In this document: positions 3,605 through 54,600 of the stretch, piece after piece
Position numbering within the stretch: the first letter of the stretch is position 1
Layout of the letters: each line of letters opens with the position of its first letter
Translations under genes and position numbers: made by a program
From: Bispira polyomma
Lineage: Eukaryota
Length of the DNA stretch: 64,000 bases
Direction of reading: 5' to 3'
Assembly: GCA_965649765.1 (NCBI GenBank)
Contig: OZ287757.1
Span: 31,496,001-31,560,000 of the forward strand
Notes under the pieces: generated by a model
Seen by the model: only the letters and a program-made list of their open reading frames with translations
What the model was told of the DNA's origin: nothing
Databases searched by the model: none

Positions 3605-4790
3605 ATGAACAAAATATTAAAAGAAAACATGGCTAAACAATCAAAGGCGTTGTGTAAAAAGTGTGATGAGAGACATGTCCCACCTACAGGCAAGAAATGT
3701 AACAGAATAAATGAATTAACTGAGGCTTTCAATAGCAATGATCCGGATGTAGTGGAGGGCCATACAGTGTCGGACACGCAAGTCAGTACTGGGGCTGCAG
3801 TGCGCCGTGCAATGGGAGCCGCGTCGGCAGGCAGTGGAGAGAGGATCAGCAGGACAGTGTCCAGATGCAGATATTGAAGGAATTACAACGGGTGAATTCA
3901 CGACTGGACGTGGTAGAGGATCAGGTAACTGAATCCAGCGTCAGGCGACAGAAGGACTTGCTGAAAAGTGATGGACACAAGTTAAGTAAAAATTCCAAAT
4001 TAAGTAAAACTTTACAAAGTAGTGTTCAGTGTAATAAGCAGAATGTGAGTGATAGTACATCTGACAGTGAATCCTCAGATGAGGAGCAAGTCCTGCTCAG
4101 TTTGTCTGCCCTAAGAAGCTCTGCTTCTTTCCAATGCTGAGTTGACTCTAGGTTAAGGGAACTGGAAAGAGACAGCAGAAATACAGGTAGTGAAAGCTCA
4201 AATAAAATTAAGTCAAAAAGGGGAGGTGCAGTAGAAGTTAAAGTAAAGCAAAAAATAGCTTGGCCTCAAGAATCCATATTAGGAGGGGTTACTAGAAACA
4301 GGTTATCTTACGATCAGTTGTCCATGTCACAATGGGTGCAAGGGTTTTGTAAAAACATAAGTGAGGAACCGGACAGAAATAAAAAAGATAAAATGGTTTC
4401 ATACATGTCTGATCTGATGGAGGATGCTACTGATTTTATGTGGCAGGGGGCTAAGGCGGCACACGCAGTGCTCTTGTGCGAGATGGAGCGAGGCTCGCTC
4501 ACTTGGGACGATACAAATAGGATAGATCGGATCTGTAGGGCACATGCACAAAAGCACACAAATAATAGCAACTTTACTGGGAAAAATTGGGGTGGAAAAT
4601 CAGAGAGCAATAAGAAACCGTGGTTTTGTAAATTTTATCAAACAGGTACCTGCCAACAAAGAAAAGACCACGAAATCGGTGGCAAACTCCACAGATATAT
4701 TTGCTCACATTGTATAGCTACTGGTCGTGTCTTGGCTCATCCTGAAAAGGACTGCCTCCTTGCCAAGAAAAACCTAGGGCAAGCAAAACG
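3605..4790 (+). pseudogene. E1 gag-like ORF (frameshift near 3865, stop at 4138-4140)
   Basis: N-terminal CKKCDERHVPPTGKKC knuckle, coiled coil MQILKELQRVNSRLD, WQGAKAAHAVLL block and C-terminal Cys/His fingers; collinear with E4 gag. Confidence 0.88.
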
Positions 4791-7232
4791 AGTAAGTAGC
4801 TGTCCTCTAAGTCCTAAACTGGAGGGCAGCTGGGTTAGTACCAAAGCCAGTCAGTTACAGACGGTAGAAAGTAGAGAAGTTGTCAATGGTTTTAGTGTTA
4901 AAGAAAAAACAGATGGTGTTAGTGTTGATAATACCGAATGTGTAAATGTAATTGATAGAAATGTCAATCAAAAGCAGGCAGAGGACTCTGCCTATTTTAA
5001 ACGTATACAGCATGTGACAAAACATGCTGAGAGATGTTTTTATAACAAAAAAGTTAGAAAAAGTGATGTTGAGAGTTTGTTAGTTCGCCCATTACAAAGT
5101 ATTATGTGCACATTTAGGGCGGTGAATTGTAATGTCAAAAATAGGTCTTATGCTAGCGTAGTTAAGGCTAGGCAGATACAGATGGACACACAATGTCGAA
5201 CTAAAAAACACGAAATCCAGTCGCAGCGTGTCAAAGAACTCAACGCGAAGTGTGCCAAAGTGGGTAGTGGCGTTAAAACAAAAAATTTACAGGAGAGAAT
5301 CGATAATGTAAATCAAAAGGATGAAGTTTCCCCCCAAAAAAGTGAACAAAGTGACGCATGAGAATAATAACTCGGCGGAAACAATGAAACTATTGTTTGA
5401 TGTAAACGGCATGCAGGACGACATATTCATTAACTCCATATTGTTTCCTGACAATGGGCGTAAGTCAAAGCAAGTGGTGGGGGATTGTGACAACTTCACA
5501 AAGCAAAGCTTACAAAGCAATCAGAGTTTCAATTTGGATTTATTCCAATTACTGAACAAACACTACCAAGTAACATTGGCATTACAAAAACAAACATTCA
5601 ATGTCCAATTCAGTTACACAATGAAGTCAAAAAAGGGGGTCAGCCAAATTTCTTGGGGGCTTGAATACCAGTGGCATCTCAATTACACACACAACAATGG
5701 AAGGCCATGTTAAGTGATTATTGGGATCAGCAATTGCCTCAACTTATTGAGTTTGGGTTCCCTTTGGGTTTCAATCGCAAATGTGAACTCAGGTGTGATG
5801 TGGACAATCACAAGTCTGCAGTGGAATATCCAAATTATGTTGAAGTTTACTTAAGTGAGGAAAAAAGCCACGGGGCGATAATAGGGCCGTTTAAGCAAAA
5901 CCCAATTAAAAAAGGTCATCATTCCCCGTTCATGACTAGACATAAACCCAATTCAGACAACAGTGTTATAATACACTTGAGTTGGCCCAAAGGTTATTCA
6001 GTTAATGCAGGGGTAGAAAAAGACAGCTATTTAGGAGCAGATTTTAAGCTCAGCTTCCCCACGATTGATGATCTGACTAGGGAATTAACCAAGCTAGGAA
6101 AAGGCGCTCATATCTATAAGTTGGACGTGAGTCAGGCTTTCCGTCATATGAAAATTGATCCAATAGATTATGACCTGTTAGGACTCAATTGGAAAGGTAC
6201 TTCTATAGATACGTGCCTCCCCTTTGGGAGTTGGCACGGAAGCCTATTTTTCCAACGCGTTAGTGACGCTGTACGTTACGTCATGCGTCAGTGTGGCTAC
6301 AGCATTATTAACTATATCAATGATTTTTTAGGGTACGGCACACCCACGGTAGCAAAACGTTCATTTCAGTGTTTGTACAAAACTATGAAAATATTAGGTC
6401 TCACTATTAGTCAGAAAAAATTGGTGGCTCCTAGCACACAAGCAGTGTGTCTAGGAGTCCTTATTGACACAGTGCAAGGCACAGTTGCCATACCAGAAGA
6501 AAAGCTACCACAAATTCGTGTGACGGTTAGCCAATGGCAAATAAAACTCAATGTACCAAAAAACAATTGCAATCATTGTTAGGCCATTTGCTATACATTC
6601 ACAAGTGCGTTAAGTCTGCAAGATGTTTTCTAAATAGAATGTTGGAACTACTAAGAGGCATCTCAAATCCAAACAGAGTAGTCATAACAGAAGATTTCAG
6701 ACGTGACCTCAGGTGGTTTGACAGATTTTTACCTCTGTATAATGGTGTGTCCATGTATGGGCATAAGATTATTGACCAAACCCTAGAATTAGACGCTTGC
6801 TTGTATGGCTTAGGTGGTAGATGGAGAAATCTAGTTTACCATCTTCCAATTCCACTCAATTTTCAAAGTCTTGGCATAGTCCACTTGGAGATGATTAATA
6901 TTGTAGTAGCCTTAAAGCTATACCAAAGTTATTGGACAGGTAACAAGGTACTCATTAAATGTGACAACAAAGCAGTTGTGAATGTGTTGCAATCTGGTAG
7001 GGCTAGAGACCCTTATTTATCAGCATGCGCCAGAAATATATGGTATATGGCTGCAGTTGCAGACATTGAAATTCAGTATAGACATGTTATGGGTAAAGAT
7101 AACAGAATAGCTGATCTATTGTCCAGATGGAAAAATTCAAGTAATAATGTCCAAGAATTGAACACATTAGTGGAAAATCCAGTATGGTTGAAAACGTCCT
7201 TAGAATTGACTTATATTGATGATACATTGTAA
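4790..7232 (+). pseudogene. E1 pol (linker + RT + RNase H), frameshifted
   Basis: ORF pieces 4318-5361, 5321-5713, 5671-6582 and 6534-7232. RT motifs KLDVSQAF and LPFG; catalytic YIDD mutated to YIND. RNase H motifs DAC / LEM / CDN / NRIADLLSR. Confidence 0.92.
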
Positions 7233-20103: not shown

Positions 20104-20226
20104 ATTCTAATGGACACTAATTGAATCACGTCTATTAAAATTTAATATTACAGTACAATAAACCCTATTGTTATTACCCCCAATACACTTTCCAAAAGTT
20201 CGTTTCACTAGTAGTTGGCCAATCTC

Positions 20227-21443
20227 CTAACTGCTGTTATTCGCTTTAACCTCATGTTGTTTAGATGAATTCGACTGGTAGCACTTGAATTCTGGGTGCA
20301 CTACATCCTTATGAAGCAAAGTGGCACAGTGCCAGCAAATGTGCCTGTTTTGCCCGTGATCTGTCTTGTTGTTACATTTGCCTGTGTTGTAGAGCTTACG
20401 AATGGTCCTGGAAGAACTGGACGACTGATTGCTATGTGAGTTGTGCGAGCCGTGAGAGTGAGATGAATGTGCCATGGCCATCTGTGATGCGTTGAGGCAA
20501 TTCAACGCCCACTGGGTGTTGTCACTCCACTGAAGGCGACCCTCTTCTATCTTGTGTATATTATGCAACCACAAAGTACGAACCACTTACCACGGAAGTG
20601 AAGCAGCATCCCGAAGAGATAAAATGACTTGCTGACACATTGCTTTTGAAATGACCGGGTCTGTAACCTGCATGGCATTGGCCAATTGCCCCGCCGCCCA
20701 CTTGGGTAGTGAGAGCTCGTCAAACATGGGCCGTTTCCTGGATGTTCCCCCCACCCAACCTTCATTTGCCCACCTTAGTTTGGGGTCTGCATCAGGGTAC
20801 ATCTGTGCTATTAAAACGCCCAGACCTTTGACATGGGGTCGGCTTACCTTGGGCAAGTGTCTTCTGTGCTTGGATCTCGTACTCTGCCAGCCGTTTATTG
20901 ACTAGTGCTTGAACGTCGGGCAGTGACTTCAATACATCCACTGTAGGCACTCTAGCGTCGGCCGTGTAATTGGTGTGAGCAGGAGGAAGCGTTGGCTGTG
21001 ACGGTGCAGTTACTACAGGTAATGGGTTTGCTACAGGCAGGTTGGTCTGTGTGGTAGCAGCCAGCCAGGTAGTATTCTGGCCTACCCGTGTTTCCATCTG
21101 GTCTAGATGATTCGTGATTCGTTCGTTGGATTTTGCGAGTTTGTCCAGCATCACAAGCATTGAAGCCATAATCTGTCCATCCGAATTCGGCCCTATGGGG
21201 ACGTTATGGTGCTGCTGGAAGCTTTGTAAACGAGGATCTACTGTCATGGCTGTGTAACCATTGTTATTGTCAATGGGAATCTGAGCAGATAATACCTGGT
21301 TCAGAGGGGTCTGTATCTCCGTGGTGCAGTTGTCACTGGCGTCACTGTTCACTAATTTTCGTTGTGAAGTTTTAGCTTTGCTAGTACTTTTACTAGTCTC
21401 TTTTTTTCTTGTTTTCTGATGGTGTCTTTTTTGTTCTACCCAT
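20227..21443 (-). pseudogene. E2 gag-like ORF, fragmented
   Basis: Pieces 20792-21352, 20587-20856 and 20227-20586 with FDELSLPKW, IEEGRLQW and C-terminal HICWHC...HPEFKC. Likely start ATG at 21443. Confidence 0.75.
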
Positions 21444-31483: not shown

Positions 31484-33613
31484 TTATATATCAGTATTTG
31501 GAATAAAAACCCGTGGGCAAATTTCCCACCAATTACAATCATAAAATTTCTCACATAATGTTAATGACACACGACCAGAAAACCAACGTGAAAGGCAATC
31601 AACGTCCTGATTGTTAGCACCATAAATGTGAGCATAATAAACTTGTATATCAAGGCTAGCTGTCAAAAGCCAAATAGAACGAGCATAAGCCATGAGTATA
31701 GAATCCCGTGAACAGCCCGAGTTCAATACAGCCACAACGGCCTCATTGTCACAATGAATTCGTATAAGTTTGCCTGTAAACAGCGAGTGCAACGTGTTAA
31801 GCATGACCCAAATATTTGCCATTTCCAAGTGCACTATAGTATACAATTCAAGGCCATTAGTTGGGTATGTAGCTGCATAAACATTAGTACCACACTTGGC
31901 CCCAACTCCTGACAAGGAGGCGTCAACATATACTTCAAAATCAATATTTTTGTGGTCGTGTATCATGACAGTACCATTAAACAAACACAGGAACTGATTA
32001 AACCATGCTAGATCTTGATGGAAGCCCTCAGAGAGGGGAATTCTATCAGTAGTGGCTGCCCGAAAACACTGCAGCATTCTATTTATAAATAATTGTGCTG
32101 GACGCACACAACGATGAACATACAATAAACGTCCCATAAGTGACTGAAAACCCCTTTTTGATGTAAATCGCCTATTTTTCCACCGACTACAACAGGTTTT
32201 AATTTCAGGTTATTTCTCAAGAGGTATTTGAACAGTACCTTTTTCAGCGTCCACAAGTATGCCCATACAGACTACTTGCCTACTAGCAGGAACTAATTTC
32301 TTGCTATTAATAGGCAAACCTAAATTATGCATTAACTGGTAAAGGGTATGATAAGCAGAGGTTGCTCGCTCAACACTTTGGACACCAATGACGTCATCGA
32401 TGTATCCTAGAATAGTGTAATTTTGAGAATGCATAGCAAAATGTAAAAAGTCCACCAATCGCTGCATTAATCCTGAGCCGTGCTTGTAGCCAAACGCTGC
32501 CGCCACGTCCACATAGAACTTATCATTCCAAGACAATCCCATGACGTCATAGCCACCAGGGTCTATTCGGAGGTTCCTGAACGTGCGACTTACGTCGATT
32601 TTATATAAATAAGCATCTTTGCCTACTCTAGCAATTTCATCAATAATGTGATCAATAGTGGGATATGTCAAACAAAAATCGTAACCGTCGTACACGTTAT
32701 CCTGAACACAACTATTTACAGAGACATTTGCTGGGTAAGAAAGATCAACAATAATACGACGTGAGTCGTTTGATTTGGGCCTAGACAATAAAGGCGAGAA
32801 ATGCATGCATTGGAATGGCTGTTTGTCGTAAGGTCCTGCCATAGCTTTATGACTGGTTTCAGTTGCAAAATAAATGTCAACGTCCCTAGGATATTTGAGA
32901 GCCGAGCTGTGATTATCTACCTGTGTATTAAATTGGAATTTTCCTCTATCCACACAAAGTGGGAAGCCAAATATCAAATACTCATATAAAATGGGGTCAG
33001 TATAATCTTTTAGCAAATCAAGCCATAAGGGCAGATTCAATTCCGAAGGGACTTTAATACGTGCTGATTTATAATTTGAAACCCCTGTTTTAGCTACGAT
33101 GGCATGAGCTTTAGCCACCCAGTCATCAAAAGAAGTGAAGGCCACTTGGGAATATGAACCAGACAAACAGTAATTACTAGGGCATGCTCGAATAAACCCA
33201 AAATGTTGGGTGTAGCGAGATTTAACACCAAGGGTGTATATAGGTAGAGTATCGGCCTGAGAAGAAGCACGTGTTTCAATACTTGTGACACTAAGGTCTA
33301 TATTTGGTAACGTGGAACTTACATCTACAGGGACACTTGATATATCGGAACTGATATTATTATCATTCACTATGAAACCATCAGCAACCTTTTGCATAGG
33401 TACACGAATTTGCTCAGTAATTTTATCCACATTACTATTACCATTAAAACTACTTGTACAAAATTTTGAATTAACAAAAACCCGAGAATGAACATATTTT
33501 GGCTGTTTATGTCCATGATTTTTAGTTTCTTGGAATTTTCCAATAAAAACAGAACCCTTTTTAGCAGTAAATATTTGTGTACGCCTATGCAAGTTTACTG
33601 TTTGGTAACCTCA
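31484..33613 (-). pseudogene. E3 pol (RT + RNase H), interrupted near 32210
   Basis: ORF 32210-33592 has KIDVSRTFR and YIDD; ORF 31484-32137 has DAS / LEM / CDN. Confidence 0.92.
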
Positions 33614-34799
33614 TTTTTTGGAGGTCTAACTTCTTTAATTTTTCTCAAGCAAGTACTCTCACTATGACCAAAAAATTTCTTGGTTATACCATGACAATAT
33701 GCACACCCATGCTTATGGAGTTCATTTCTTTCCACATGATCTGATTTCTGATGGCATTGACCCTTATTGTAGTTACGACAAGGTACAGCTGTAAGAGACT
33801 GAGCGGCTTTCAATTTTGAAGCAGTGTTTGAAGGGTAAACTACTCTTTGAGTATACCTATCTTTGAAATATCTTGAAATATCCTTCTCCATTTCTTGAAG
33901 TAAAATTTTGTGGGCTGTTTTAGCAGTAAACCAGCTCGTATCTTGACCATCCTGAAGTAACTAATGGCCATACCTTAACATATTCTGCTGAACTACAGCA
34001 TTTTGCTCTTGCAGAACACAACCCATAAAACCCTGACAAAATTGTACTGAGGTAAGCTCATCATATACAGGAGATTCCCTATCAGGTCCTAAACCAAACT
34101 CGTGAGGCCAATTTATACTAACTTTAGCAAAAGTGTCTCCTACTCTATACAACCCAGATTTAATCTTTTTACCTTGCACCCCATCGAAGTGGTCATGTCT
34201 GTCTGCTAAATCTAGTTGTGTCAAATGTCTATTAACTTCTGTCTGGATGGGCTGGTTTTCCCTCTGGAAGCTCATGGTAGGGATGATCCCGCGCTCCAGT
34301 TTGTCGAGTTCTGCATGGTAGTCTCTGGCAGGAGTAGGACGAACAGCTCTGGCTTCGGTAGTTGCAGTGGACGGCACATACCCAGTCCTCTGGGTAGTGA
34401 CAGGAACAGCCGTGGCAGCTCGGGTGGTAGTTGCAGACCCAGGTACAGCAGAAGTTCTAGCAGATAGGAAAAGATCCATATCTTTCTCTCTATCTTGTTT
34501 CAGTTGTTGGACCTGACCCTCGAGCTTCTGTAAATGAGCCATTATCTGATCCAACTTGTCTACCTGAGCCCTATTATCTGACCCTTGGTCCAACGCCACG
34601 GTACTAGCTTCACCAGAGCTCTCCTCTCGCTGTGGCTGGCCTGGAGGTATCTGTGTATCAGTGAACATTTCAGCCTCAGCCATATTGCCTAAGTTTGTCC
34701 TGACAGCAAACCGACAACCGTCACCAACTGGCTTGTCGTGTTTGACTAAACAGTGGTTACAAAAAGCAGATTTTTCCTTACCTTACCAGGTGGAATCAT
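33595..34799 (-). pseudogene. E3 gag-like ORF (in-frame stop at 33961; frameshift near the start)
   Basis: The frame upstream of ATG 34683 encodes CNHCLVKHDKPVGDGC, the same knuckle as E1/E4. A 5-bp duplication (GTAAG x2, ~34777-34786) disconnects it from ATG 34799. C-terminal CRNYNKGQC..H..HGCAYC..H....C. Confidence 0.85.
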
Positions 34800-38669: not shown

Positions 38670-38967
38670 AGGGTTTTACCAAGAAACCAGGATTTTATTG
38701 GTTCAATCAAGGTCATGTGACAAAGTTGTAAATCAAAATACTGACTCAGATGAACTTACTTGTTTATTTAATTTGGATTATTTAGAATAATATACTTTTA
38801 TAGTACAGATATTCACATCCTCAAACCTGATGACCTTAAAAGGTTGCTAAAAGACAGTCCAAAACTAAGGTTAAGTAAAGATTGATAAGCTTACAGGGAA
38901 GTTTACGGTGTATTTTAAACAATCCTTTACAAGGAAAAAAATATTGAATACCCGAAAGGCTTCCTAC

Positions 38968-39090
38968 GTAGGAGAAAGTTTGTCCGGTACTTTTCATCAA
39001 TCGGTGGTTTCCAGTACAGCACATCGTAGTGGTTTCCTCCACCAATAAATCTGGCCATCATCATATGACCTAAACAATGTTCAAAATAGT
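38968..39090 (+). mobile_element. Old SINE core fragment (Meta/MESC-like)
   Basis: GAAAGTTTGTC...TCGGTGGTTT...GGTTTCCTCCACCAATAAA resembles, from memory, the conserved core of invertebrate Meta-type SINEs; not verified by search. Confidence 0.4.
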
Positions 39091-41159
39091 ATACAAGCTG
39101 AAGTAAGTCAACAAAATATATGTTGAGCCTGCATGTGGCTAAACACACGACAGTGACAAAAAAATAAGGCCACCGAAGAAATTATATCAATAGCAAAAGA
39201 GCATTAACAGAAAAACACAATGTCATGATAGCAATACAGCCAAGGTGGCTCTATTCATGTTCATTAAAAAGATATATTTGAGCTCAGTTGTTGTGGCTTA
39301 CATTCTTTTTTCCGAGAGCCCATTTGGGGACATAAGTGGTATATCTCATGGTAACAGACATATAAGTCTTGCCTTCTTATATGCATAATCCTGTCATGAT
39401 TCATCAGGTTTAAGCTATTAGTTGACCTGGTAAAATAGGTCACTCGCTAAAGGAAATTAATGCAAAAGACATATTACTCATTATTTAGGGTAATAATGCA
39501 CTTAGGGCTTTTTAGATGTATTGATCATTTGTTTATTGTGATACATTATATATAATAAAAAAAGATGTTGTACTTACACAATATAAGCCACAGCCCTAAA
39601 TTCCTGGTTTGTCATTTTTAATTATGATAAAATGCCGATTTAACAATAACTGTACCTTTTTGCTTAAATTTTACCAGCAATATCACTTTATTTTTCAGTG
39701 CAAACTTGAAATTATTGAAATTTTATGTTATGTCCATTTTATTTTAAGTATTCAGTCGAATGTTTTTAAAAAGAAGGATAAATACACAAGAAATGGATTT
39801 CATCTTTAAACACCTCTGATTCTATATAAAAAAGTAATCAAATATATATTATTTTTAACCAAAATATAGATCTTTTAAATTTTATGATACACTAACCAAG
39901 GTTCTATACTCCTTACTTTTAAGTTCTCAATTTCACTGTTGATAAAAGTCTATCTACTATGGAAATATGGCACCAATACAATATTCACTAATTATGGTCA
40001 ATAAAAGTTTAACAGAATAAATTACACTGTTAAATATCTATTATATCATATCATGCACACTGTAACGAAAGTAATCATTAATGTAACAAGGTACAAACTA
40101 ATTTTATCCTCAGGTTTACATATCCACAGACAGTCAAGGATTTCCTTTTATAAAGCTTTATTACCCTCACCCCTGTTTTTTATCACAACACGCCAATGTA
40201 CACTGAGGCAATTGAGATATTTCTGTCTTAAACAAACAGCAGCAGTTTATTTGCAAAATAAGTCCGGGTGCTTCTTTTTCTTGGCCCTAGGTTGAGTTGG
40301 ATTCACCCTTTTTGAATTTTTTCTCTTATAAATGTAACTTTTGAAACAGAAGTCTTAAATCCAAAAATAATCAAGGCTTCGATGGTTTTCTTCTTGAGGT
40401 CTCTCCCCACATGGTAATGCCAGCCAGTAAATAATTATTTGGAGTAATAAAGACATATTGTCTTTGGGGAAATCTGTTTGTATTGGAACAAAAATTTGTA
40501 TTTTTATTATCTGCTTCATCATGTCATTTTAGTGCAAAAAGAAGCATTTGGAAATAATGTAGTAACAAGAAGAGCATTGGCCCACTGAAATGGTATTGGG
40601 AAAGAAATTCTGTGTGCTTTAGAGCTGTCCATTTTCATTCATCGCAAAGATCTCATTACATTTATTTGCTATAACAGCACACATGTTCTTTACAGATAGG
40701 GGGCCAAATGGACACCTCAATCAAACAATAATCTTGAAACCTTTGAAAACAGTTGTTTACTAAGATTGACAGAATGACCCTGAAAGAGAAAGTGTCAGTC
40801 TTACTATTTGTGGTGATGTATTCAGTTTAGATAAATAAAGTTATTTCAAAGTAGATTGAATAAAATGGGAACCTAAAATAGAAACTAAAATGTATTTACT
40901 TTAATGATACCTTTGTTGACTAGCACCAAGATAATGCTAGTTGGCGTCAGACTGAGTTTGAATACTATCACTGTATATCTGGAAATAGGCAGGTCTGCCA
41001 GTGTGGTAATATGTAAGGTTACCTAATGTGTGTTCAGATGTACTAATACACAGCGACTAAATTGCTAAGATTACGTAAATACTTCCAGGATTAAGTCCAC
41101 ACACATTAAAAAAAATATTTTAAAACTTGGAATGGCTATCAAAATATGGCCCCATTAAA

Positions 41160-41776: not shown

Positions 41777-43906
41777 GCTCTCTGTACAATTGGACCATTC
41801 TGCAAAACAAATCCTTTGCAATAAGAATATTTTTTAAACTTGTGATGATCTAATTTTTGCATAACAAAACATAACGTGTTTTGTGGTACACAATGTGTGT
41901 TAATAAATTTGGACCTAATGCTGGACCAAATTTTTCTGCTTTAGCATGTCACATGTACATAAAAACATACACATTTCGTTGTATTTCATTCTGCAAACAT
42001 GAGGGAAAAATATACGGACATCCCCTACTGTACACCTATGCTCAAACACAGGTTAATCCCATGTATGGACTTAAAAATTAGTCAAGACTATTACTTTAAG
42101 GTCACAGGTCAAAATGCATATTTGACACACACCTACATATCTTGGTAAATATCTGTAAATATATGTACTGCCTATATGTGTGGTTCCGGTAGTCTGTAGT
42201 GTAATTGTTATTTCCTTAAATTTCACACCTTAGTCAGCAAAGAAAAAAAGTTTGTTTTTTAGTCATTTTTCAAAGTTCCGCCATCTTAGCATCCATTAAA
42301 TCTCCTAGATAATGAATGGCTGCAACTTGTTAAGAGTTCCATTTATTGTGCACTTCCACTTGTGCACTTGCAGAAATACCCAATAGACAAAAGGTCATGG
42401 GGTAAAAACCTGAATGTCTGATGTTAAAGGTAGGTTTCATTTTTATCTATCTTACTTGTCTTATCACTGACGACAGTTCTATTTATGTTATTATTCGCCA
42501 TAAGGAAATACCAAACACTTATACAAAATTAATTAGTAAACTTGCCTGAAATTAAAAATATATTAAAATAATGACAGCTTGCCAAGGGTATTACCATTAA
42601 TAACCATGTGGTGTGTGAGTTTAAGCATGATTTTAAGTTGAAGAGCTTTGATACATAGAGGTTTAGTAGTGTTCCTATGCCACAGAGACATTATGGAACA
42701 GGGTCGTTATTAGGACAGTCACTAAATTCAGGATGCTTTGAAACATAATCGTGTCACAATTTCCCACCACAATTTCCCAGTTTGAACCTTTTTGTCTCAA
42801 ACTGTAACACGTTGCGTAATGTAATCTGACTAGTGCTATAAAAAATCAGGGTTTTAATCAAAGGTCCACATGAAACCTTATTACTATTTTAAAAGATGCA
42901 GGGAGCAAGTTGTTCAGCTACATGGAGATAAATTACCTGGTGTCTGCAAAGGACCTGTTTTCCCCTACATAAATATACACAATACCACAAAGGCGTAGTA
43001 AAAAAAGGTGAACCGTGGTACTAGGTTTGATCAAAAGGACAGCCATGTTATTTTAATCTAGGGTTTATTCGCTCTTGTCTCCCATTTGGGGCAAGATGGG
43101 GCAGATCACAGGAGGGTGAAACATAGTCACATAGTTAGATGTAATGTTCATCACAGGGGGTGGAGGGGTATTTATGATTGTCTAAAATATTACATGGGAT
43201 ACCATGTAATATGGGTCAATTTCTATTTGACATATATATATCCTATTGCTAAGACACAAAGAAATCCCCCTTGTCATTTTTAAATCAATCTCACTGTAAT
43301 ACCTAGGTCACACATTAAAGGTTAGGCCTGGGGAATGGCTAAAACATTGAATCCCAGGTAATTCATGATAAAACCAGATTTATATTAGATAAATGCTGTG
43401 CATCTTTGAACTTTTCATCAAATATGGCTGTACTTGAAGAATATGAAGTCAAACTCAAACAAATTAAAGGATTTGTATACTTGTATACAACGTGTATATG
43501 TTTTTACCCGTGAGAAAGCTAACAAACTAAAACACTCATTTTTCAGCCATTTTACAACAAAGGCTACAGGTAATAAATATAATTTATCCGTGCATACACA
43601 GGCATATTCAGGGCCTGAAATATAGCAACAGCTTGGATGTAAGGGTCTTAACGTAAAACCTGTTTGTAAAAAGTTATAGGCCAGCAGAATTCCCTTGTTA
43701 GGATAGTTTAATGTTGTATCCTTGATGTTATTATTTATGCATAATAAATAATAACCCAACTCCCTATTCACAACTTTGAATTGTATAAATGTTTCCTCCA
43801 AGGGGATTTCATTTGGGTCCCTTCTTCCCCTATCTTTCTCTTTACATGATATCAAATGTGGCTTTAGAATTCAGGAAAAACTGCAGGACCACATTATTGA
43901 ATAGAA

Positions 43907-44150
43907 TTTGAATATTTAACGTCCACTCTAGTACCTTTTAGTAGGTTATATTGGGACGGGTAGTTGGAAACGCTGGAGGAAACACTGCATACAGTCGGTC
44001 AAGGTTCTGCAGAGAAACCAGCGGCCCACAGTAAGGAACTACCACCTTTCCCACATAGGCATCGACGGGATTCGAACTCACGCCGCCCAGAGGTGAGAGA
44101 CCAGTGATTGTGAAGCGCAATGCTTGCTAACCACTAGGCCACTGCGGCCC
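43907..44150 (-). mobile_element. tRNA-derived SINE, family 1 copy d
   Basis: TSD CATTATTGAATAGAA at 43892 and 44151; empty paralog near 27881. Confidence 0.93.
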
Positions 44151-45339
44151 CATTATTGAATAGAAAAACAACTTTTTAACAAGTGAAAGAAATTTACCTC
44201 AAACCATCTATATGGAAATAAATGCCAAGAGTCTGAAGCATGATGAAATGAGAGTTTTATCGTTTCAGTGTCACTCAATGCTTATAAGTTTTGTTATCAG
44301 AACTTGTTTTCTTGTGGTTGTCCATGCTTGACATTTAGATTGTCTTAGGTAAGGTTTAGCTAACTAATACATCTTGTGTGTTTACCACTAGTAAATATAC
44401 AAATTTAGTGAATCTGGGACGTGATTCACAAACATTTTTAGAAGACCGTTCTTAGAATTTTCTTTGTCTCAGGCAATCAGATTCTTTGTAACAATATTTG
44501 TAACAAATACAATTGGTGGACACAAGATTTCAAGAATTACTGTCTTTGTGAATATACCAGCCCTGGCCCCAGATCCATAGATATGTAACAAAGGAATAGT
44601 TGTAAAGTATTTATTCGTTGGGTGTAACACTCCTGACAACTGACAACAGAATGGTTTATTTTGTCGTCCACTATGTACTTTGTGAGATACAACCAAGTTA
44701 AAATAGGAAATATTGGTGATTGGTAACCTTGTCTATAAGAGCCTTATTAAATACATCATTGAAAATTATCAATAAACTTGAGCAAAAATATGTAGGGAGG
44801 ATGTTACAAACATCTACTGTCGATGGCTATGGACAAAGATGACTTTCAAACAAACATGGGGGCAAGTCATAACAAGAGTTGCCTTTTAAAAAAGACATTG
44901 ACACACTCTGTGATTAACACCTCTCAGTTTGGCTGGGTCGATTGCCTCCACCAATCCACAAATGCATTTCATATTATTTCTAACATGGTGGTACCCTTTT
45001 CTACGTTGGCACTCTTGCAGAGTAAAAAAACAAGATCACACCAAACTTGATAAAAATAGATACTAGCTCAGTAAATAAACAAACTTAGTTATAACTAGAT
45101 CATAGTGGTTACACAACAGGGAACATATATGCCATGGCGTAATTAGCTAGTGCTTCAAGTAAGTGGGGTAAAGCGTGATATATTTATTATCGCTACCGGA
45201 TACAGTCCAAACGTCCAAAGGTCATGAAATTAATTAACACTACATTTGGATTTGAAATCTTATTATATAATGTATATATACTTGTTTTCAATGCATATAC
45301 ATAACAATATTATAAATATTTTTTACAAAAGGTATAATA

Positions 45340-45592
45340 AATTTGAATTTGGATATTTAACGTCCACTCTAGTACCTTTTAGTAGGTTATATTGAGACGG
45401 GTAGTTGGAAATGCTAGAGGAAACACTGCATACAGTCGGTCAAAGTTCTGCAGAGAAACCAGCGGCCCACATTAAGGAACTACCACCTTTCCAACATAGA
45501 CATCGACGGGATTCAAACTCACGCCACCCAGAGGTGAGAGACCAGTGATTGTGAAGTGCAATGCTTGCTAACCACTAGGCCACCACGACCCC
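45340..45592 (-). mobile_element. tRNA-derived SINE, family 1 copy e
   Basis: TSD ACAAAAGGTATAATA at 45325 and 45593. Confidence 0.93.
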
Positions 45593-46681
45593 ACAAAAGG
45601 TATAATACAATGCACATGAAATATTGTTGTAATTTACAGTTGGAAGCCAAGAACACTACTGGAGGCTATTTATAAAATTGCATTAGTGTTAGCGAAAAGT
45701 TAAAACCATATAATTTTGAAAATAATGCCTATAAATAAATTACTGAGGGCAGAATCAAAATGTAAATGCACTTGTATAAGGTGGTGTCAGCCTGAGTGAC
45801 TGGCAGGTCTTGTGACTGATGAACGGAATCAACTTAGTATAAGAACAGGATAATTGTAAATGTATATGTAAAAGATGTACATATTTTAGAAAACCACCCA
45901 GGCAGTTTTTTGTCATTTATGCAAAGAGGGGTTATGTTCCCAAGACGATTCTGAGAATAACTAATATATATTTTTAAATATTTGCTTATATCTATATAAC
46001 ACAATGCAATAAGATTGCAAATAGACTAAAACGTGAAACTCAATATTATACAACTGTTTCACTCGTGGTGTCTAGGCTTCACGGGAGTCAGTCCTGCCCC
46101 CCTCTTAAAATTCTTAAGTTACCAGCCTGGTTTTGACAGGTAAAAAGTAAATGACATCATAAGGAATTCCACTTGTTACTAGGGGTTCAAATGTTTATTC
46201 TGAATTCTCATTGGCTCCCAACTTGGGGTATGCTTAAGAAATCCATTTTACCTTCAGTTTAAAATTTTCTAGTCAACAGCACAGACGTGCTGAGAGTTTT
46301 TTACAAGAATTTGTTTTTAAAAGTTAGATTTACAAATGTTTGGGATGAAACTGAACTGTCTTAGTGATTTTAGTCGTCAGTTATACACATGTGCATGGAA
46401 TTAATTACAAATTGAATATGTACATAACACTGGAAGTCGTGTATTGATGATTGGAAGTTCAAAGCAATTGTCAGTGTTGAAGCCCAGCTGATCTGTCAAC
46501 CTCATGCTTGGTTCGCCCGAAAGGGCAGCAAAAAGGGACGGTCTAACCTATTTCTGTTACTCACCACTAAATTGGGTTCTGAAACTTGAATTGGTTGGCC
46601 AAGCGTGAATTTGTCAAATCAGCACTGAGGGATTTGTTTTTCATCTTGTTTCAGAAAGGAACATTGACTTAAAAAGTAAAA

Positions 46682-47797
46682 ATGCCACAAAGCAAATCAC
46701 TATGTAAAAAGTGCATGAACAGACATTTACCCCCAACCGGGAAAAAGTGTAAACAAATGGAAGTGCTTGAACAGGTCACCCGCCAGTCTGACATGTCAGA
46801 CGCCACAGACACCCCAGTTCGTGGAAGACGGGAGGCAGCAGCGTCGGCGCCAGGAGGGATAGACAGCGTGCAGATGCAAATACTCAGTGAACTGAAGAAG
46901 GTCAACTCACGGCTGGATGCAGTTGAGGAGCAAGTTGCAGATGTGAGAGCAAAGGAGACAGACTCTGAACGGGACTTGCAAAAGTTAAGTACTGGTTTTC
47001 ACAAACATTCTCGTAAAGCTAAAAGAGGTACAAAAAGTAAAAAGGTGTGTGATAGTGACAGTTCCTCTGATGAGTCAATAGTACCCACTATGTCCGTGTT
47101 AAGGTCCTCCCAAGAGATACAAAGAGAAGTAGACAACAGATTGAGGGAATTAGAGCACGAAGGGGTCTGTCATGCAGGTAATTATTTTGTTTCAAAAATC
47201 AAATCCAAAAGGGGGGGAAATGTTGACGTGATTGTAAAAAATAAGGTGGCCTGGCCACATGAGTGCATACTAGGGGGAAATAGTAGGCAGAGGCTTGCAT
47301 ATGACCAGTTGTCACTCACACAGTGGGTACAGGGATTCTGTAAAAATATTTTAGATGAAAATGATAACTCACTCAAAGAAAAGATGATACAATACATGTC
47401 TGAGCTGATGGAAGACGCCACAGATTTTTCGTGGCAGGGGGCAAAAGCGGCCCATGCGGTCCTCTTATGCGAAATGGAGAGGGGAACTGTCTCATGGCAG
47501 AACACTTCTCGCATTGAAAGGATACGCAGGGCCCATGCACAAAAACATTTACTGGGGCAGGGCAAATCTACTTGGGTCAAAAGCAATGAAACGGGCAAGA
47601 AACCTTGGTTTTGTAAAAATTTCCAGAACGGGAGCTGCACTCATAGTAAGGATCATGAGTTTGGGGGGAAAACTTACAGGCACATCTGTTCTCATTGTCT
47701 GGAAAAGGGCAAAGAACTAAATCATGCAGAAAAAGATTGTCATTTTGCAAAAAAGAAAGTATTTTCAAAAAACGAGCATGTGGCTGCTCAACTTTAA
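46682..47797 (+). CDS. gag: Gag-like protein (N-terminal CxxCxxxH knuckle, coiled coil, C-terminal Cys/His fingers)
   Basis: 371-aa ORF; CKKCMNRHLPPTGKKC; CKNFQNGSCTHSKDH...HICSHC...HAEKDC; conserved with E1 and E3. Confidence 0.88.
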   Translation: MPQSKSLCKKCMNRHLPPTGKKCKQMEVLEQVTRQSDMSDATDTPVRGRREAAASAPGGIDSVQMQILSELKKVNSRLDAVEEQVADVRAKETDSERDLQKLSTGFHKHSRKAKRGTKSKKVCDSDSSSDESIVPTMSVLRSSQEIQREVDNRLRELEHEGVCHAGNYFVSKIKSKRGGNVDVIVKNKVAWPHECILGGNSRQRLAYDQLSLTQWVQGFCKNILDENDNSLKEKMIQYMSELMEDATDFSWQGAKAAHAVLLCEMERGTVSWQNTSRIERIRRAHAQKHLLGQGKSTWVKSNETGKKPWFCKNFQNGSCTHSKDHEFGGKTYRHICSHCLEKGKELNHAEKDCHFAKKKVFSKNEHVAAQL

Positions 47798-50265
47798 ATC
47801 CGAGTGAGGGCAGCTACGAAATGAAACTCAGACATGAAGGTTGTAAAAATGTAAGTGGTGAACAAAAAGCTTCTAGAAATGTAGTGAAACCAGTCGTTGT
47901 GTGTAAAGAAACCAGTAGATATACACCTCCAGTGCAGGGTGATCATTTTAGAACCAGAGTGTTTTATAATAGTCAGATTAATGTGAAAGAAACACAGTCT
48001 TTGATGGCTCGTACAACGCTCCAAAGTTTTAAGTTTAGGAACACACATGTTGTCTGGCCCTGTCAGAATACGGCTAGTAAAAGCATGACCAGAACCTTCT
48101 ACTCTCGAAAACAAAAACAGGCCGACATTAAAAAACAAGATCAGGACATTGGGGGCTTTTGTCAAAAGCAATATGGTAATACCACAGAATCCAAGATCGA
48201 TTGTGCAGACAAAAGGGTCGCAAAAACATTAGAATTGGACTCGGCAGACAAATTCAGGGGGCATAGTGACACGTCAGGTCACAACAAGGCATCAAGGGGG
48301 GACACGGGTAGCGACATGTGTGTTTCTAATCTTAATGGTGACAATGCACAAGGAAATGCCCACGCAAGTAATGTAGAGAAACCCATAATAGGTGGGTCAA
48401 AGGGTGTCACAAAGTTATTATATGATGTGAACAAATATTCCATTGATGACAAATTTATAAACTCGGTACTTGGTAGAAAGAAAGTATGTGAAATGGACAG
48501 TGTAGCACTAAATAGTGTTTTTAGTTTCACAAAGTGGAGAAAACAGTCTCAATTCGAGTTTGGATTTATTCCATTATCCGATGCTGTGACCGATGACAAC
48601 GGCGTATTACCTCACCACAGTACTGTGGTAGATCCGATTATGCAACACTTTGTTATCCAAAAAACTGGTGTTCATAATTTCAAAGGTGCGCGTATTCCGT
48701 TAAACTCCCAGTTAAAAGTCAAAAACTGGAAAAAGCATTTAGTACATTATTGGGATCAGCAATTGCTTCAGCTTATTGAGTTCGGCTTCCCACTAGATTT
48801 CAATAGACAGTGTCCTTTAAGATGGGAAGGGGGAAATCATAAGTCGGCCACAGAATGTCCCAAAGATATAGAAGTGTATTTGGAAGAGGAAACCAAACAT
48901 GGCGCCATAATCGGCCCTTTTAGTGAGAATCCAATCAAAACGGGTCACTGCTCCCCTTTCATGAGCAGAGAAAAACCCAATTCGGATAACAGAAGGGTGA
49001 TAGTAGACCTTAGCTGGCCTCCAGAGGCTTCCGTTAACGCAGGGGTGGACAAAAACCAATATCTAGGTCGTGAGTTTAACCTGACCTTTCCCACGGTTGA
49101 TCATATAACGGCTGAACTCAACAAGTTGGGTAGAGGAGCGTTCTTGTACAAAATTGACGTCAGTCGTGCGTTCAGGCATGTGAAAATCGATCCTCACGAC
49201 TATGACCTGCTAGGTCTTTCTTGGAAAGGGGCATATATTGACACCTGCTTGCCATTTGGTAGTAGACATGGCAGTCAGATCTTTCAAAGATTGAGTGACG
49301 CAGTGCGTTACGTAATGCGTTGTCATGGTCACAGCGTCGTCAACTACATAGATGATTTTATAGGCTACGGCACGCCGTCGGTGGTGCACCACTCATACAA
49401 TAAACTATTGCAAACGTTGCAAGACTTAGGTCTAACCATTAGCCAAAAGAAACTGATACCTCCTGCAACTGAGGCAGTATGTCTGGGCGTATTGATAAAC
49501 ACGGTAGAGGGTACAATATCAATACCCAAAGAAAAACTCGAACTTATACAAAAAACGGTCGAACAGTGGCATCATAAAAGTACTTGCACAAAACGTCAAC
49601 TGCAGTCATTGCTCGGGTTGTTGTTATATGTTCACAAATGCGTTAAGCCTGCCAGAACCTTTCTGAATAGAATGCTTGGATTGTTGAGATGTTCATATAA
49701 TCAAAGTAGTATTAAACTCACAAGTGATTTCCATAGGGATCTCAGGTGGTTCAGTAGGTTTCTGCCATTGTACAATGGGGTTTCCATGTATGACCATAGG
49801 TGTGTGGATCACGTACTGGAATTGGATGCCTGCCTCAGTGGCCTGGGGGGAGTTTGGAAAAATTGGGTGTATCATTTCCCCATAACCAAAGGTTACATGA
49901 GCTTAGGAATAGTACATCTGGAGATGGTCAATATTTTGCTGGCCTGCAGGCTTTTTCAAAGGGAATGGACCAAAAAGAAAGTACTGATAAAGTGTGACAA
50001 TCAAGCAGTAGTGTGGGCCTTACAAATGGGCAGAGCTAAGGATCCTTTTTTGGCTGCCTGTGCAAGGAACATCTGGTATGTCGCGGCATTGGCTGATATC
50101 GAATTCCAGTACGTCCATATTCTGGGTAAGCAAAATAGAACAGCTGACCTCCTGTCAAGGTGGCAAAACACTACCGAAAATTACAATGAATTGCATAAAT
50201 ATGTTACTAAACCTGTATGGCTAGCACCTGTGATACAAATGATCAATGTAGATAACGAGTTGTAG
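47695..50265 (+). CDS. pol: Reverse transcriptase / RNase H (probably entered by -1 frameshift at 47767-47773)
   Basis: 856-aa ORF with KIDVSRAF, LPFGSRHG and YIDD; RNase H DAC / LEM / CDN / ADLLSR. No protease, DDE integrase or methyltransferase motifs seen. Confidence 0.95.
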   Translation: MSGKGQRTKSCRKRLSFCKKESIFKKRACGCSTLNPSEGSYEMKLRHEGCKNVSGEQKASRNVVKPVVVCKETSRYTPPVQGDHFRTRVFYNSQINVKETQSLMARTTLQSFKFRNTHVVWPCQNTASKSMTRTFYSRKQKQADIKKQDQDIGGFCQKQYGNTTESKIDCADKRVAKTLELDSADKFRGHSDTSGHNKASRGDTGSDMCVSNLNGDNAQGNAHASNVEKPIIGGSKGVTKLLYDVNKYSIDDKFINSVLGRKKVCEMDSVALNSVFSFTKWRKQSQFEFGFIPLSDAVTDDNGVLPHHSTVVDPIMQHFVIQKTGVHNFKGARIPLNSQLKVKNWKKHLVHYWDQQLLQLIEFGFPLDFNRQCPLRWEGGNHKSATECPKDIEVYLEEETKHGAIIGPFSENPIKTGHCSPFMSREKPNSDNRRVIVDLSWPPEASVNAGVDKNQYLGREFNLTFPTVDHITAELNKLGRGAFLYKIDVSRAFRHVKIDPHDYDLLGLSWKGAYIDTCLPFGSRHGSQIFQRLSDAVRYVMRCHGHSVVNYIDDFIGYGTPSVVHHSYNKLLQTLQDLGLTISQKKLIPPATEAVCLGVLINTVEGTISIPKEKLELIQKTVEQWHHKSTCTKRQLQSLLGLLLYVHKCVKPARTFLNRMLGLLRCSYNQSSIKLTSDFHRDLRWFSRFLPLYNGVSMYDHRCVDHVLELDACLSGLGGVWKNWVYHFPITKGYMSLGIVHLEMVNILLACRLFQREWTKKKVLIKCDNQAVVWALQMGRAKDPFLAACARNIWYVAALADIEFQYVHILGKQNRTADLLSRWQNTTENYNELHKYVTKPVWLAPVIQMINVDNEL

Positions 50266-50267
50266 AT

Positions 50268-51281
50268 ATGGAATTAATGATGCTATGCTTTGTTTCAGGG
50301 CACAGGCTCCTTGAGAAGCTGGGTGCACAGGCTAATACAAGGTTGAAATCTGCCTTCAGACCAAAGACACAGAGCTCCTACACACAGCAATTTAGAACTT
50401 TTGTGGCTTTTTGCGTGCATGTGAACGTGCATTTGCAGGCAATGTCTGTACAATGCATAATGTCTTTTCTGGAGTTTCTGATGTTTAATAACATATCAAG
50501 CCAAATGATGGCGAATTATCTCTCAGCTATAAAGGCTAATTTCACAATGCTGGGCCTTTCTGTGGTCCCCTTTCAGCATAACAAAATAAAGTATTACTTA
50601 AAAGCTGTAAAAAGGAATAGACCATTGTCGGTCACAAGACATAATATATTAGATATAGAGATGCTAACAAACATCATATCCCTTTGTGATAGCTTCAAAC
50701 TGGGCGTGGTCTTTAAGGCGGTTTTTCTGACTGCCTTTTTTGGCTTTCTGCGCATTTCGAATCTAGCACCACATTCTGTGGCTGCCTTTGACAGAACTAG
50801 GCACTTAACCCCAGCTGATCTATTCTTTACAGGCGACTCTGTCAAACTACTTATAAAATGGACCAAAACTCTGCAAAATAGGGATAAAGTGCACATCCTT
50901 ACTCTCCCAAAGCTTTCTAATCATAAACTTTGCCCATACAAGGCCTTAAAACACTTGCTGAAACTATGCAAACCACTCAGATCAGAACCCTTATTCCAGT
51001 TTGAATCCTGTCATCAGTGGCAGGTGCTTACTGATACACGTATACGTAAAGTTCTAGCAGCAATAAATGTAAAAATGGGTTTGGCACCAAACCACTTTAC
51101 TTTTCACACATTCCGGCGTTCGGGTGCCTCGTTTGCTTATAATTCAGATATATCGATACAACAAATCCAGCAGCATGGCACTTGGACGTCGGACTGTGTC
51201 TGGACATACATCCATGGGGATGCCACCATGAGTGAGAATGTTGCTAAATCCCTGCAGACTACACTAAATGCGATGATGTGA
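50268..51281 (+). CDS. Tyrosine recombinase (phage-integrase family)
   Basis: 337-aa ORF with the full catalytic set: FLRISN (R), HTFRR (HxxR), HGTW, VWTYI (Y). Confidence 0.95.
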   Translation: MELMMLCFVSGHRLLEKLGAQANTRLKSAFRPKTQSSYTQQFRTFVAFCVHVNVHLQAMSVQCIMSFLEFLMFNNISSQMMANYLSAIKANFTMLGLSVVPFQHNKIKYYLKAVKRNRPLSVTRHNILDIEMLTNIISLCDSFKLGVVFKAVFLTAFFGFLRISNLAPHSVAAFDRTRHLTPADLFFTGDSVKLLIKWTKTLQNRDKVHILTLPKLSNHKLCPYKALKHLLKLCKPLRSEPLFQFESCHQWQVLTDTRIRKVLAAINVKMGLAPNHFTFHTFRRSGASFAYNSDISIQQIQQHGTWTSDCVWTYIHGDATMSENVAKSLQTTLNAMM

Positions 51282-51405
51282 TTACCCTACGTTTCATTGG
51301 GCTTTGAGGGTTCTTCTAATGTTAATTGGTATGGTCTTATACGTATACATGTCATTTAAGTACTTATGTAATATAACTATGGTGAAGGTGACAGTAACAT
51401 GGCTC

Positions 51406-51618
51406 TAAGGTCGCCTAAACAGGTTAAGATAACCTTAAACTAATTAAGGTCACCGCTCGATGGTGAACCAATTTTTGAACATAAGTTAAGGTAACCTTAA
51501 TGTGGTGTAAAGTGTAATTTAAGGTCACCTGACGTTGGTGACCTAGTTTGAAGTGACAATAGTCAAGTTAAGTTCACCTCAAACTGGTTGTGTAAAATTA
51601 AGGTCATCTTAGATGGTG
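51406..51618. repeat. Array of TTAAGGTNACCTTAA palindromes in the E4 3' region
   Basis: Copies at 51406, 51424, 51444, 51486 (perfect), 51519, 51568 and 51598. Confidence 0.8.
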
Positions 51619-52244
51619 ATTGTATGGTATAATGTAAGCTTGTATAATCTTGTATAACCTGGTGTGATATGTAAATAAATAGTAGTCATAACGTTTGTAT
51701 ATAATAAAAGAGTACCCGCAATCATGCGCTTGTTTATGACTTCGGCTTGGGGAGGTGGGGACTGAACAGTATGACAGCATACAATACTCTAATACAATTG
51801 CAACTTGTAACATTTTTACCACCAAAACATATAGAAAAACTACATGACTTGGAGAAAATGAACAGTTTTCAAAGTCCTATTCCTGTGTACTAGAGGGGGT
51901 TGGCTACAAGTGCAGTTACCAGGGTGCAAGATGAAAAAAAAATATTTTCATCTTTCTCTGTGCTAAAGCTAATATCGATAAATATGTAGCAGAGAGGCTA
52001 CTGTTGGACCATTTTTGTCATTTATTTGTGCTTGAAAATTAGTCAGGAACAAGACCAGAATATATATAAAACTACACAAGTTTGCAAACAAAGGGGGTAA
52101 GGCTTTAGTGTTGCATTTTTGTATAACAAATATATTTAAAAAGACTACAGGTACAGTTAGAGCAGTGCAATAAGAATTCTACCTCTGTCAGCACAAGAAC
52201 TAATACTAAATAAAGCTTCTTATTGCTTTCATTAGGGCTTAGAA

Positions 52245-52497
52245 TTTGAATTTGGGTATTTTTACGTCCACTCTAGTATCTTTTAGTAGGTTATATTGGG
52301 ACGGGTAGTTGGAAATGCTGGAGGAAACACTGCATACAGTCGGTCAAGGTTCTGCACTGAAACCAGCGGCCCACAGTAAGGAACTACTACCTTTCCCACA
52401 TAGGCATCGACGGGATTCGAACTCACGCCGCCCAGAGGTGAGAGACCAGTGATTGTGAAGCGCAATGCTTGCTAACCACTAGGCCACCACGGCCCCC
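52245..52497 (-). mobile_element. tRNA-derived SINE, family 1 copy f
   Basis: TSD CATTAGGGCTTAGAA at 52230 and 52498; empty paralog at 59681. Confidence 0.93.
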
Positions 52498-54469
52498 CAT
52501 TAGGGCTTAGAAGTAAGATTTATTTGCTGTCTGTTGAAACAAATATTTTCATCATCATAGAAGTAGAGAGACACTTAACAATGGACTTAAAGCTCTCCTT
52601 TTTCAGATCCTTACATAAATTAATAGTAGTGTGGTTTACCAATTAATTACTGAGATGTCATGGATGAAGTTATGGTATCCAATATTATTGATATGTTGCA
52701 TATAAGACAAAATAATAACATAATGTTTACATACAGTGAGCCAAATTTAATGGTAAACTTTGTTCTGTACAATGTGACTTTTTTGCCCTGTTTGAATTGA
52801 TCTGTACATGTATTTTTTGTGTATTTGTGGTTTTTATAGTGTTTTTGCCGACCCCAAGAAACTGGTCTGTGATACTTATTTGTCATTTATGATTATTTTG
52901 GGGTGTTTAATTTTACACATAATACGTCAGAACATTGAAAAATACAGCCTGGTTCAGGGAGGAAATAAATAATGTTTCATCTGCATCTTTTATTAGGAAT
53001 AAGTAGATTCTGTAACCCAAGCTGTGACATGGAATTTCTGCATTGATTGTAGGACAAAGTTCCAATTTAACGGCTTAGACATAAAAATTAAAGAATTTGT
53101 ACGCTTCTATATAATGTGTATATATGTTTTTACCTGTGAGGAAGCTTGTGTATACTTAGCTAATAACTTGTAAATTGGCAACAAATATGTAGGCAACAAA
53201 TATGTAGGCAACAAATATGTAGTCTTTTTTTTAAGTTGGATCTATTGCAATGTAATTTATGTTCATACCCTTCAGAGCTTGTATCTCACTCATGCCTAGC
53301 TCATCAGACCTGGACTGCTAAAAAGTCATCGACCTTTAGAGTTTTCAAAGTCAATCAAAAATCCAAGTGAGTAACTGTATTTTAACTCGCTTGTGAAGGT
53401 GAGAAGTCTGCTTTATTGGACTGTATATATTATACATCAAATTTTAACCCTTAGGTTGTTGACTAGCAGCTAACGGCATGTATTACTCCTAGAACATATG
53501 TCTATTGGCAAGTAGTTGACACTCCCAAAATATAGTTTTTTTCCTTTAGTTCGTCGCAGTAGGAAATTGTTATTACAGCAAACTCCCTTGTTTACAAAAT
53601 TAATATGTGAAGCAATTATTAAATGAAGCTACTAGTCTGTGGTGGTTTTTTGCGTGAATCCAGCTATCTGTAACCTATTACTTAAAAAATGCCCTACAGT
53701 TCCGAGCAATAGTTTTTTCTTAGGTCAAAAGTGTTAACCCTATTTTACAATATCATTAAAGAACATGATTCTGTGATGTTTCAGAAATGTGTGTCATTCT
53801 TGTTAATTGTGAACCAGCTTGTATATTCTTTTTGGATGCACTTATTGCCACAGGAGTGCAATAATGATTGACTAATTCTTATCAGGTTTCTATCACCCCT
53901 TATATGTTAAATGGTATGGCCCGTATTTACCAATTTTAAAGATTACAACAATGATTGACCAAATTACATCAGGTTTCTATCACCCCTAATATGTTAAATG
54001 GTAGGCCCCGTAATTGCCAATTTTAAAACGGAGCTTTTTATTAAATGGAAACAATAGTCTATTAGGAGAACAAGAGTAGATTTCTCGAAATCATATTCCA
54101 TCTGGAGGGAGGCTATGTTGGCAGTGTCTCGAGTACAGAAAGTTACCTTTTCTATAGCTTAAGTTAAGCAGAAGGATATGTGTCTTTTTGATCTGTGGGT
54201 TCTGGGGTCTGCAAAATCTATTGTCAAAACTTGTTGTTTTGTGTTTTTACCATATTCAGCAATATTGAAAAACTTTAATAGGTAAACAACTTATTATTGT
54301 TGCGATACATTGATTAACTAGTAAACATCGGTTTCAAAATTGTTTTGTGTCATAGTTTCACATATTTACACTTTATCTGTAAATTATCTATAAACTTAAT
54401 ACTCAAGTATGTTTAGGACTTTATGTGTGTGTCCTAGACCACTGTTTTTGGTATTGATAGCAACATTGG

Positions 54470-54600
54470 TTGGTTTCTTATATGATGCTTCTAAGTTGTG
54501 AAATGATCTGTCTCGTTATATTCGCACTGCCTCATCACTTGTTTTAGAAAGAAGCTCAATACCTACCTTTTTAGCAAGGCTTTTCCATCTTAGCCTCCCT
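54470..54600 (+). mobile_element. L2/CR1-group LINE 3' remnant
   Basis: Decayed DASKL*NDL..YIRTASSL..RKKLNTYLFSKAFP* motif. Confidence 0.6.

Follow-up and report, generated by a model that had tools for sequence, protein, structure and literature searches.

We looked at how reverse transcriptase (RT) is expressed in E4, one of four related tyrosine recombinase (YR) retroelements (E1 to E4) within a 64-kb window, that is, the whole stretch of 64,000 nucleotides (nt) of Bispira polyomma contig OZ287757.1 that was analysed. In E4-type Ngaro elements, the heptamer A_AAA_AAC near the end of the gag-like gene is very likely a programmed -1 ribosomal frameshift site giving a Gag-Pol protein. The E4 junction was checked base by base, and what the original prediction had described there was confirmed throughout: the heptamer lies in the gag frame, an ORF of 46673-47797 (TCA AAA AAC, S-K-N), pol is at -1, and a 6-nt spacer leads to a stem of 10 pairs (47780-47789 with 47808-47817). 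Two of these pairs are G-U, and the minimum free energy is -19.2 kcal/mol. The folding z-score was -2.64 in a 77-nt window and reached -4.39 when 43 nt were cut out around the stem, and the gag stop TAA (47795-47797) sits inside the predicted stem-loop. Slippery-type heptamers are common in the 64 kb, with 401 and 402 matches on the two strands, so the evidence lies in the conservation of this one and not in its presence. Two further candidates were rejected: a pseudoknot seen by eye in E4 (loop GAGT with a downstream ACTC), whose downstream partner is not conserved in the clade alignment, and an A_AAA_AAG 18 nt upstream, which is not conserved.

To follow the junction across families, 268 loci were fetched from the 1.04-Gb assembly with DNA and Gag queries from E1 to E4. 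We kept 199 records with an intact C-terminal Cys/His finger anchor, and loci without the anchor were dropped. These gave 151 different junctions, which fell into 34 clusters at about 75% nucleotide identity; after removal of one cluster as a false anchor (a second match in an already counted locus), 33 remained, of which 25 are outside the E2 clade. The sample covers a small part of a much larger family (9025 first-look candidates) and is biased by the queries. Of the 25 clusters not belonging to the E2 clade, 21 had A_AAA_AAC in the gag frame before the stop, so the conservation across families that had been proposed as a check was observed. It is found in both the E4/E1 and the E3 clades, whose Gag C-termini are 32-38% identical. 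From the gag stop, the -1 frame runs to the YxDD motif in E4, in six of its siblings, and in copies of seven other clusters.

The sequence AAAAAAC occurred 93 times in the slippery phase and 8 times off-phase, against a background of 1 per 2079 gag codon positions. In a test that does not presuppose the heptamer, Lys-Asn was found in the gag tail of 102 of 118 copies, and this junction pair was written A_AAA_AAC in 91 of the 102, against 2 of the 34 Lys-Asn pairs in the gag body. The preceding codon was TCA, GCA, CCA or ACA (S, A, P or T) in all 21 representatives, while fourfold sites end in A in 22% of cases. Judged from these counts, the heptamer is under selection at the nucleotide level beyond what the protein needs. 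Cluster 22 has a -1-frame stop 3 nt 5' of the heptamer and the gag stop 3 nt 3' of it, leaving almost no other place to shift; clusters 23 and 25 are similar. Beyond this genome, the junction can be followed at the protein level: of 60 long pol homologues taken from ENA assemblies, 13 start with KKR-x(1-3)-[SG]C, its -1 reading.

The stem was then compared between clades. Just downstream of the heptamer, z fell below -2 in 6 of the 11 representatives of the E4/E1 clade, and control windows reached this value only once and twice across all 21 representatives. A stem alignment covered 17 of 21 junctions, omitting two with another stem and two interrupted ones; pairing holds in 83.8% of its cells, compared with 36-56% for slid partners. 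The core of the stem is invariant or changes from G-C to G-U. GGC AGC in the 3' arm is kept in 15 of 16 sequences, with backgrounds of 22/128 for GGC and 34/193 for AGC; synonymous sites staying C in this way fit pairing.

Several points weigh against frameshifting, or against the stem as part of it, and the four junctions omitted from the stem alignment are one of them. Four of the 25 clusters lack A_AAA_AAC and show A_AAA_AAT with an open -1 frame, G_GAA_AAY (a tolerated slippery variant), a deleted copy or no site. Since the clusters are related, their counts do not represent independent events, and a single genome supplied all of the DNA-level evidence. Stem covariation was not above that of shuffles, since 118-150 of 500 shuffles reached the observed value for four measures and 83 of 500 for a fifth. 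In the E3 clade, none of the 10 representatives folds well downstream, and 16 aligned junctions (of 17) give no consensus structure. One figure in favor of frameshifting is somewhat inflated by the choice of the copies with the longest -1 frame as representatives: the stretch before the first Met of the pol frame is stop-free over a median of 92 codons, against about 7 expected from the off-frame stop density. Finally, E4 has an in-frame ATG at 47821, 24 nt past the gag stop, which is not conserved. With folding in the E4/E1 clade and none in the E3 clade, the heptamer appears to be general and the stem specific to the E4/E1 clade.

Pol might be reached in other ways. It could be made separately from its own AUG, by reinitiation, leaky scanning or a shorter transcript, the heptamer merely encoding a needed Lys-Asn. 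The ATG soon after the E4 gag stop would suit such a start, as would the early Met, at codons 12-22, of clusters 14, 16 and 33. However, the first pol-frame Met varies among representatives, from codon 12 up to codon 301 or to none in the open stretch; most clusters have it at codon 52-301 or not at all, with the frame open before it, and a protein need for K-N would not fix one spelling of the pair as seen at the junction (91/102 against 2/34). A separate start is improbable. A splice from the gag donor into an acceptor located at the junction or beyond it is also conceivable, since gag contains a conserved phase-1 donor and E1-type junctions contain GTAAGT. Most families lack GTAAGT, though, and the linker shows neither conservation nor phasing of acceptor-like sites (11, 8 and 7 over the three phases, 8/26 being in phase 1); 9 of the 21 representatives, the E4 family included, have none there. 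Splicing into pol is thus very unlikely.

Slippage of RNA polymerase II or of RT on the A run, adding one A so that some RNAs carry gag and pol in frame, has in its favor that the genomic run is longer in L082, L089, L136 and L239 and shorter in E1 and L125. Yet transcriptional slippage needs neither the codon phase nor the final C, and both are fixed. A run of six A is, besides, short for efficient polymerase slippage, and we hold this the least probable of the three. The -1 frameshift read at the gag/pol overlap by the original prediction is supported by conservation across families, with no conserved pol AUG or acceptor. As a separate observation, the otherwise divergent pol linker keeps an R-x-F-Y-N-S-like motif, sometimes repeated, at about 47955-47975 in E4 and in its homologues (51 of 60 from ENA), which might serve for cleavage or binding.

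The E1 and E3 copies of the window had also been enlisted for this expression plan, and they fared less well. In E1, the 10-bp stem is indeed there (4798-4807 with 4822-4831, z -3.10), and so is the short A run that fuses the two frames. The fused gag-pol frame stops at 5361, before RT; its close siblings L070 and L073 have A_AAA_AAC with the gag stop two codons later, and no close sibling was seen to share the in-frame fusion of the window copy. E1 is best read as a decayed copy, and taking it as support for the plan was an over-reading. For E3, A_AAA_AAT is present at 33619-33613 as described, but its final T starts a TGA in the -1 frame, a stop that the original prediction missed; the -1 frame is open for just two codons, and this copy therefore cannot make Gag-Pol there. 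Its cluster has A_AAA_AAC in 7 of 10 copies. The CAGTAAA/TTTACTG stem claimed for E3 did not stand either, its z of -0.25 being at chance level and its 3' arm differing among siblings. Among genomic copies, the A run is a hotspot of indels (L082, L089, L125, L136, L239 and E1 at 4785-4789), and some of these indels fuse gag and pol.

The E2 clade behaves differently. It comprises eight clusters and forms one branch of a quick gag tree, with an SH-aLRT of 100. No conserved heptamer was found in this clade. Instead, the gag stop of 30 of 32 copies is a TAG with G as the next base, and pol stays in the gag frame through RT, over 1015 codons in L264 and 983 in L265. A CAA-CNA-CYA-G-like motif is kept 9 nt 3' of the stop (L199-L228 and L263-L268), and no strong conserved fold was seen downstream. 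These features make stop-codon readthrough likely in the E2 clade. An acceptor using this TAG is less likely: one cluster has a pyrimidine tract that would allow it, but 7 of the 8 representatives lack such a tract. With two recoding-like solutions at one junction, the Gag-Pol fusion itself would be what is selected. The longer pol linkers of the clade share a TNW...LxQ...GFY-like block (L264:1669-4713, L265:1637-4585 and 19318-20106 of the window, minus strand), which has no Pfam match and is possibly an extra domain.

Next, we looked at the YR gene. A strict AG/GTAA donor in phase 1, about 520-570 nt before the end of the finger region, was found in 31 of 55 sub-clusters, and AG/GTAG or AG/GTAT stands at the same place in several more. 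At 29 loci with a readable pol end, the YR frame was at -1, 0 or +1 relative to pol, and a pyrimidine-rich YAG often lay 6-72 nt past the pol stop. In E4, the predicted donor (47177/8) and acceptor (50298/9) agree in phase. This suggests that YR is made by splicing, as a GagN-YR protein, so that the splice half of the predicted plan is upheld by the conserved phase-1 gag donor and the acceptor before YR. With donor and acceptor conserved and the YR frame varying, the GagN-YR splice is favored over a frameshift from RT/RNase H into YR. The latter was rejected in these families, as heptamers in the last 30 pol codons are scattered and occur at only 7 of 29 loci, and the YR frame varies. Contigs of sequence runs X1 and X3, two of the three listed, contain no joint of the predicted donor to the predicted acceptor. 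They cross the gag/pol junction with no indel listed there; they possibly come from the source sample and are then not independent. A second acceptor-like site (46640-46656, pyrimidine tract and TTTCAG) lies just 5' of the gag ATG and may belong to a 5' leader intron.

By structural criteria, E4 is classed as a Ngaro-type YR retrotransposon. Such criteria for Ngaro are given in the available text of PMC4157794, PMC3266345, PMC3783388 and PMC8547959, and the first of these warns that structure alone can mislead in classification. The gag, RT/RNase H and YR open reading frames (ORFs) are all present in E4, with YR downstream and co-oriented. RT matched PF00078 (E 2.6e-10, above the cut-off); the RNase H-like match was under its curated cut-off, and YR matched PF00589 (E 2.5e-5, under the curated cut-off) along with SAM-like N-terminal matches. 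Gag has no significant Pfam match and is named from its position; an ESM Atlas search with it gave unnamed clusters at 0.91, of low recognition value, and was uninformative. Eight siblings match E4 at 98.5-99.7% identity along about 5.7 kb, and the split direct repeats A1-ORFs-B1-A2-spacer-B2 are present in four of the eight. Such repeats were seen in L031, L032, L034, L035 and L039, with about 275 nt between A2 and B2 in complete sibling copies, a point of difference from known Ngaro elements, and E4 itself has no A2-B2. E4 (51307-51764) and its siblings L033, L036, L037 and L038 stop after B1, as if the B repeats had recombined. Profile searches of the element proteins found no methyltransferase (MT) domain after RNase H, and pol terminates about 40 amino acids (aa) past the RNase H AD.LSR motif. 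The hallmarks of DIRS1-like and PAT elements (an MT domain; inverted terminal repeats with ICR) were not found in the E4 group.

The original prediction had also described an element with no protease, and this was supported. Profile searches found no protease or integrase domain in pol, and the protease motif hhD[ST]G[ASC] was present in 0 of 60 pol homologues. A DTGSD in E4 was rejected as a protease motif, since in the window copy it has no hydrophobic context and five other clusters do not have it. The features of the window are collected below.

Features of E4 and of the E1, E2 and E3 junctions in the 64-kb window
Feature	Position	Strand	Remarks
E4, Ngaro-type YR retrotransposon copy	46057..51764	+	A1-ORFs-B1; without the A2-spacer-B2 tail that siblings show
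gag-like ORF1, 371 aa, ending ...FSKNEHVAAQL and stop	46682..47797	+	Cys/His fingers near C-terminus
Slippery heptamer A_AAA_AAC, gag frame	47767..47773	+	in-phase conservation
6-nt spacer GAGCAT	47774..47779	+	sequence and alignment of E4/E1-clade junctions
Predicted stimulatory stem-loop, 10 bp and 4-bp upper stem	47780..47817	+	folding
pol ORF, stop to stop, -1 frame	47659..50265	+	low-conservation linker, RT, RNase H
Predicted splice donor CAG/GTAATT, gag phase 1, cut 47177/47178	47175..47183	+	
Predicted splice acceptor, pyrimidine tract and CAG/G, cut 50298/50299	50280..50299	+	phase-matched to gag donor
YR ORF, stop to stop	50256..51281	+	profile matches
E2 gag stop TAG then G, candidate readthrough site	20227..20229	-	pol in frame in E2 clade
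E1 junction, gag and pol in frame through a shortened A run; stem kept	4785..4831	+	
E3 junction, A_AAA_AAT overlapping -1-frame TGA, decayed site	33611..33619	-	

Other repeats were noted in the window. A dispersed repeat of about 250-280 nt, of a size like that of short interspersed elements and present in both orientations, was found at 43876-44159, 45317-45600 and 52221-52504, with further copies at 12488-12744, 15424-15672 and 26673-26889; similar sequence interrupts the junctions of L135 and L224. The region from about 52500 to 64000 forms with 36000-40500 a segmental repeat with a period of about 7 kb, 82-94% identical. L269, the sole locus from a metagenome scan (40 stretches), has ORFs unlike those of a YR retroelement and was discarded.

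In the mechanism that we propose, most E4 Gag would end at its own stop as the 371-aa protein, and a minority of ribosomes would slip back one base on the heptamer and continue into pol. The Lys and Asn tRNAs would slip in tandem from AAA AAC to AAA AAA and so produce a Gag-RT-RNase H fusion of about 1,190 aa that reads ...S-K-N/R-A-C-G... at the junction. Ribosomes would be paused by the stem 6 nt further on in the E4/E1 clade, and in the E3 clade the shift would occur without a conserved local stem. With no protease found, the fusion, which would not process itself, may remain whole or be cleaved by a host enzyme, and the amount of RT packaged alongside Gag would depend on the ratio of Gag to fusion. 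For YR, we expect a spliced RNA in which gag codon 166 is joined to the YR exon, encoding a protein of about 492 aa. On balance, we lean towards a retrovirus-like expression of Ngaro elements without a protease, consisting of Gag, an uncut Gag-RT-RNase H made by recoding and a spliced GagN-recombinase, with sister clades having switched between frameshifting and UAG readthrough.

This junction resembles those of retroviruses and long terminal repeat (LTR) retrotransposons in the type of heptamer, its phase, the spacer, the predicted 3' stem of the E4/E1 clade, the position at the end of gag and the predicted Gag and Gag-Pol products. It differs from them in that the E4 group has a tyrosine recombinase and split direct repeats and no protease or DDE integrase, and in that the E3 clade has no local stem. 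Gammaretrovirus-type elements use UAG readthrough between gag and pol; the E2 clade is like them in its gag UAG followed by G and its in-frame pol, and unlike them in having the CAA-CNA-CYA-G-like motif in place of a strong conserved downstream fold. According to the text of PMC5009743 available to us, A_AAA_AAC ranks with the heptamers most prone to shift on mammalian ribosomes, the usual spacer is 5-9 nt and leads to a stem-loop or pseudoknot, and a 2003 survey cited there places pol at -1 in 28 of 51 animal elements; neither 'DIRS' nor 'tyrosine recombinase' occurs in that text. For Ngaro, a frameshift from RT/RNase H into YR was proposed by Poulter and Butler 2015, as quoted in the accessible part of PMC13003380. 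In contrast to that proposal, it is the gag/pol junction that has the conserved slippery site here, and YR follows a conserved acceptor in a frame that varies. The mechanism is a textbook one, and in the Ngaro group it is apparently undescribed within the literature searched: no gag/pol slippery site, readthrough or GagN-YR splice was found in the available text of PMC8547959, PMC3783388, PMC6681497, PMC9210276, PMC4157794, PMC7192593, PMC3266345, PMC3212892, PMC13003380 and PMC5009743, and Goodwin and Poulter 2004 or Poulter and Butler 2015 may note the site.

Little is documented on how elements of the DIRS order express RT and YR, which lie in separate frames, and the conserved signals described here point to recoding at gag/pol and splicing for YR. 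The junctions are short, testable cassettes, and the sister clades offer a natural comparison of frameshifting with readthrough. For annotation, a pol started at its first AUG would be truncated. The conserved signals also imply a Gag-Pol fusion in an element free of protease. If the proposed expression plan is true, the GagN-recombinase fusion could co-assemble into the particle, and the switch between frameshifting and readthrough would parallel the split among retroviruses.

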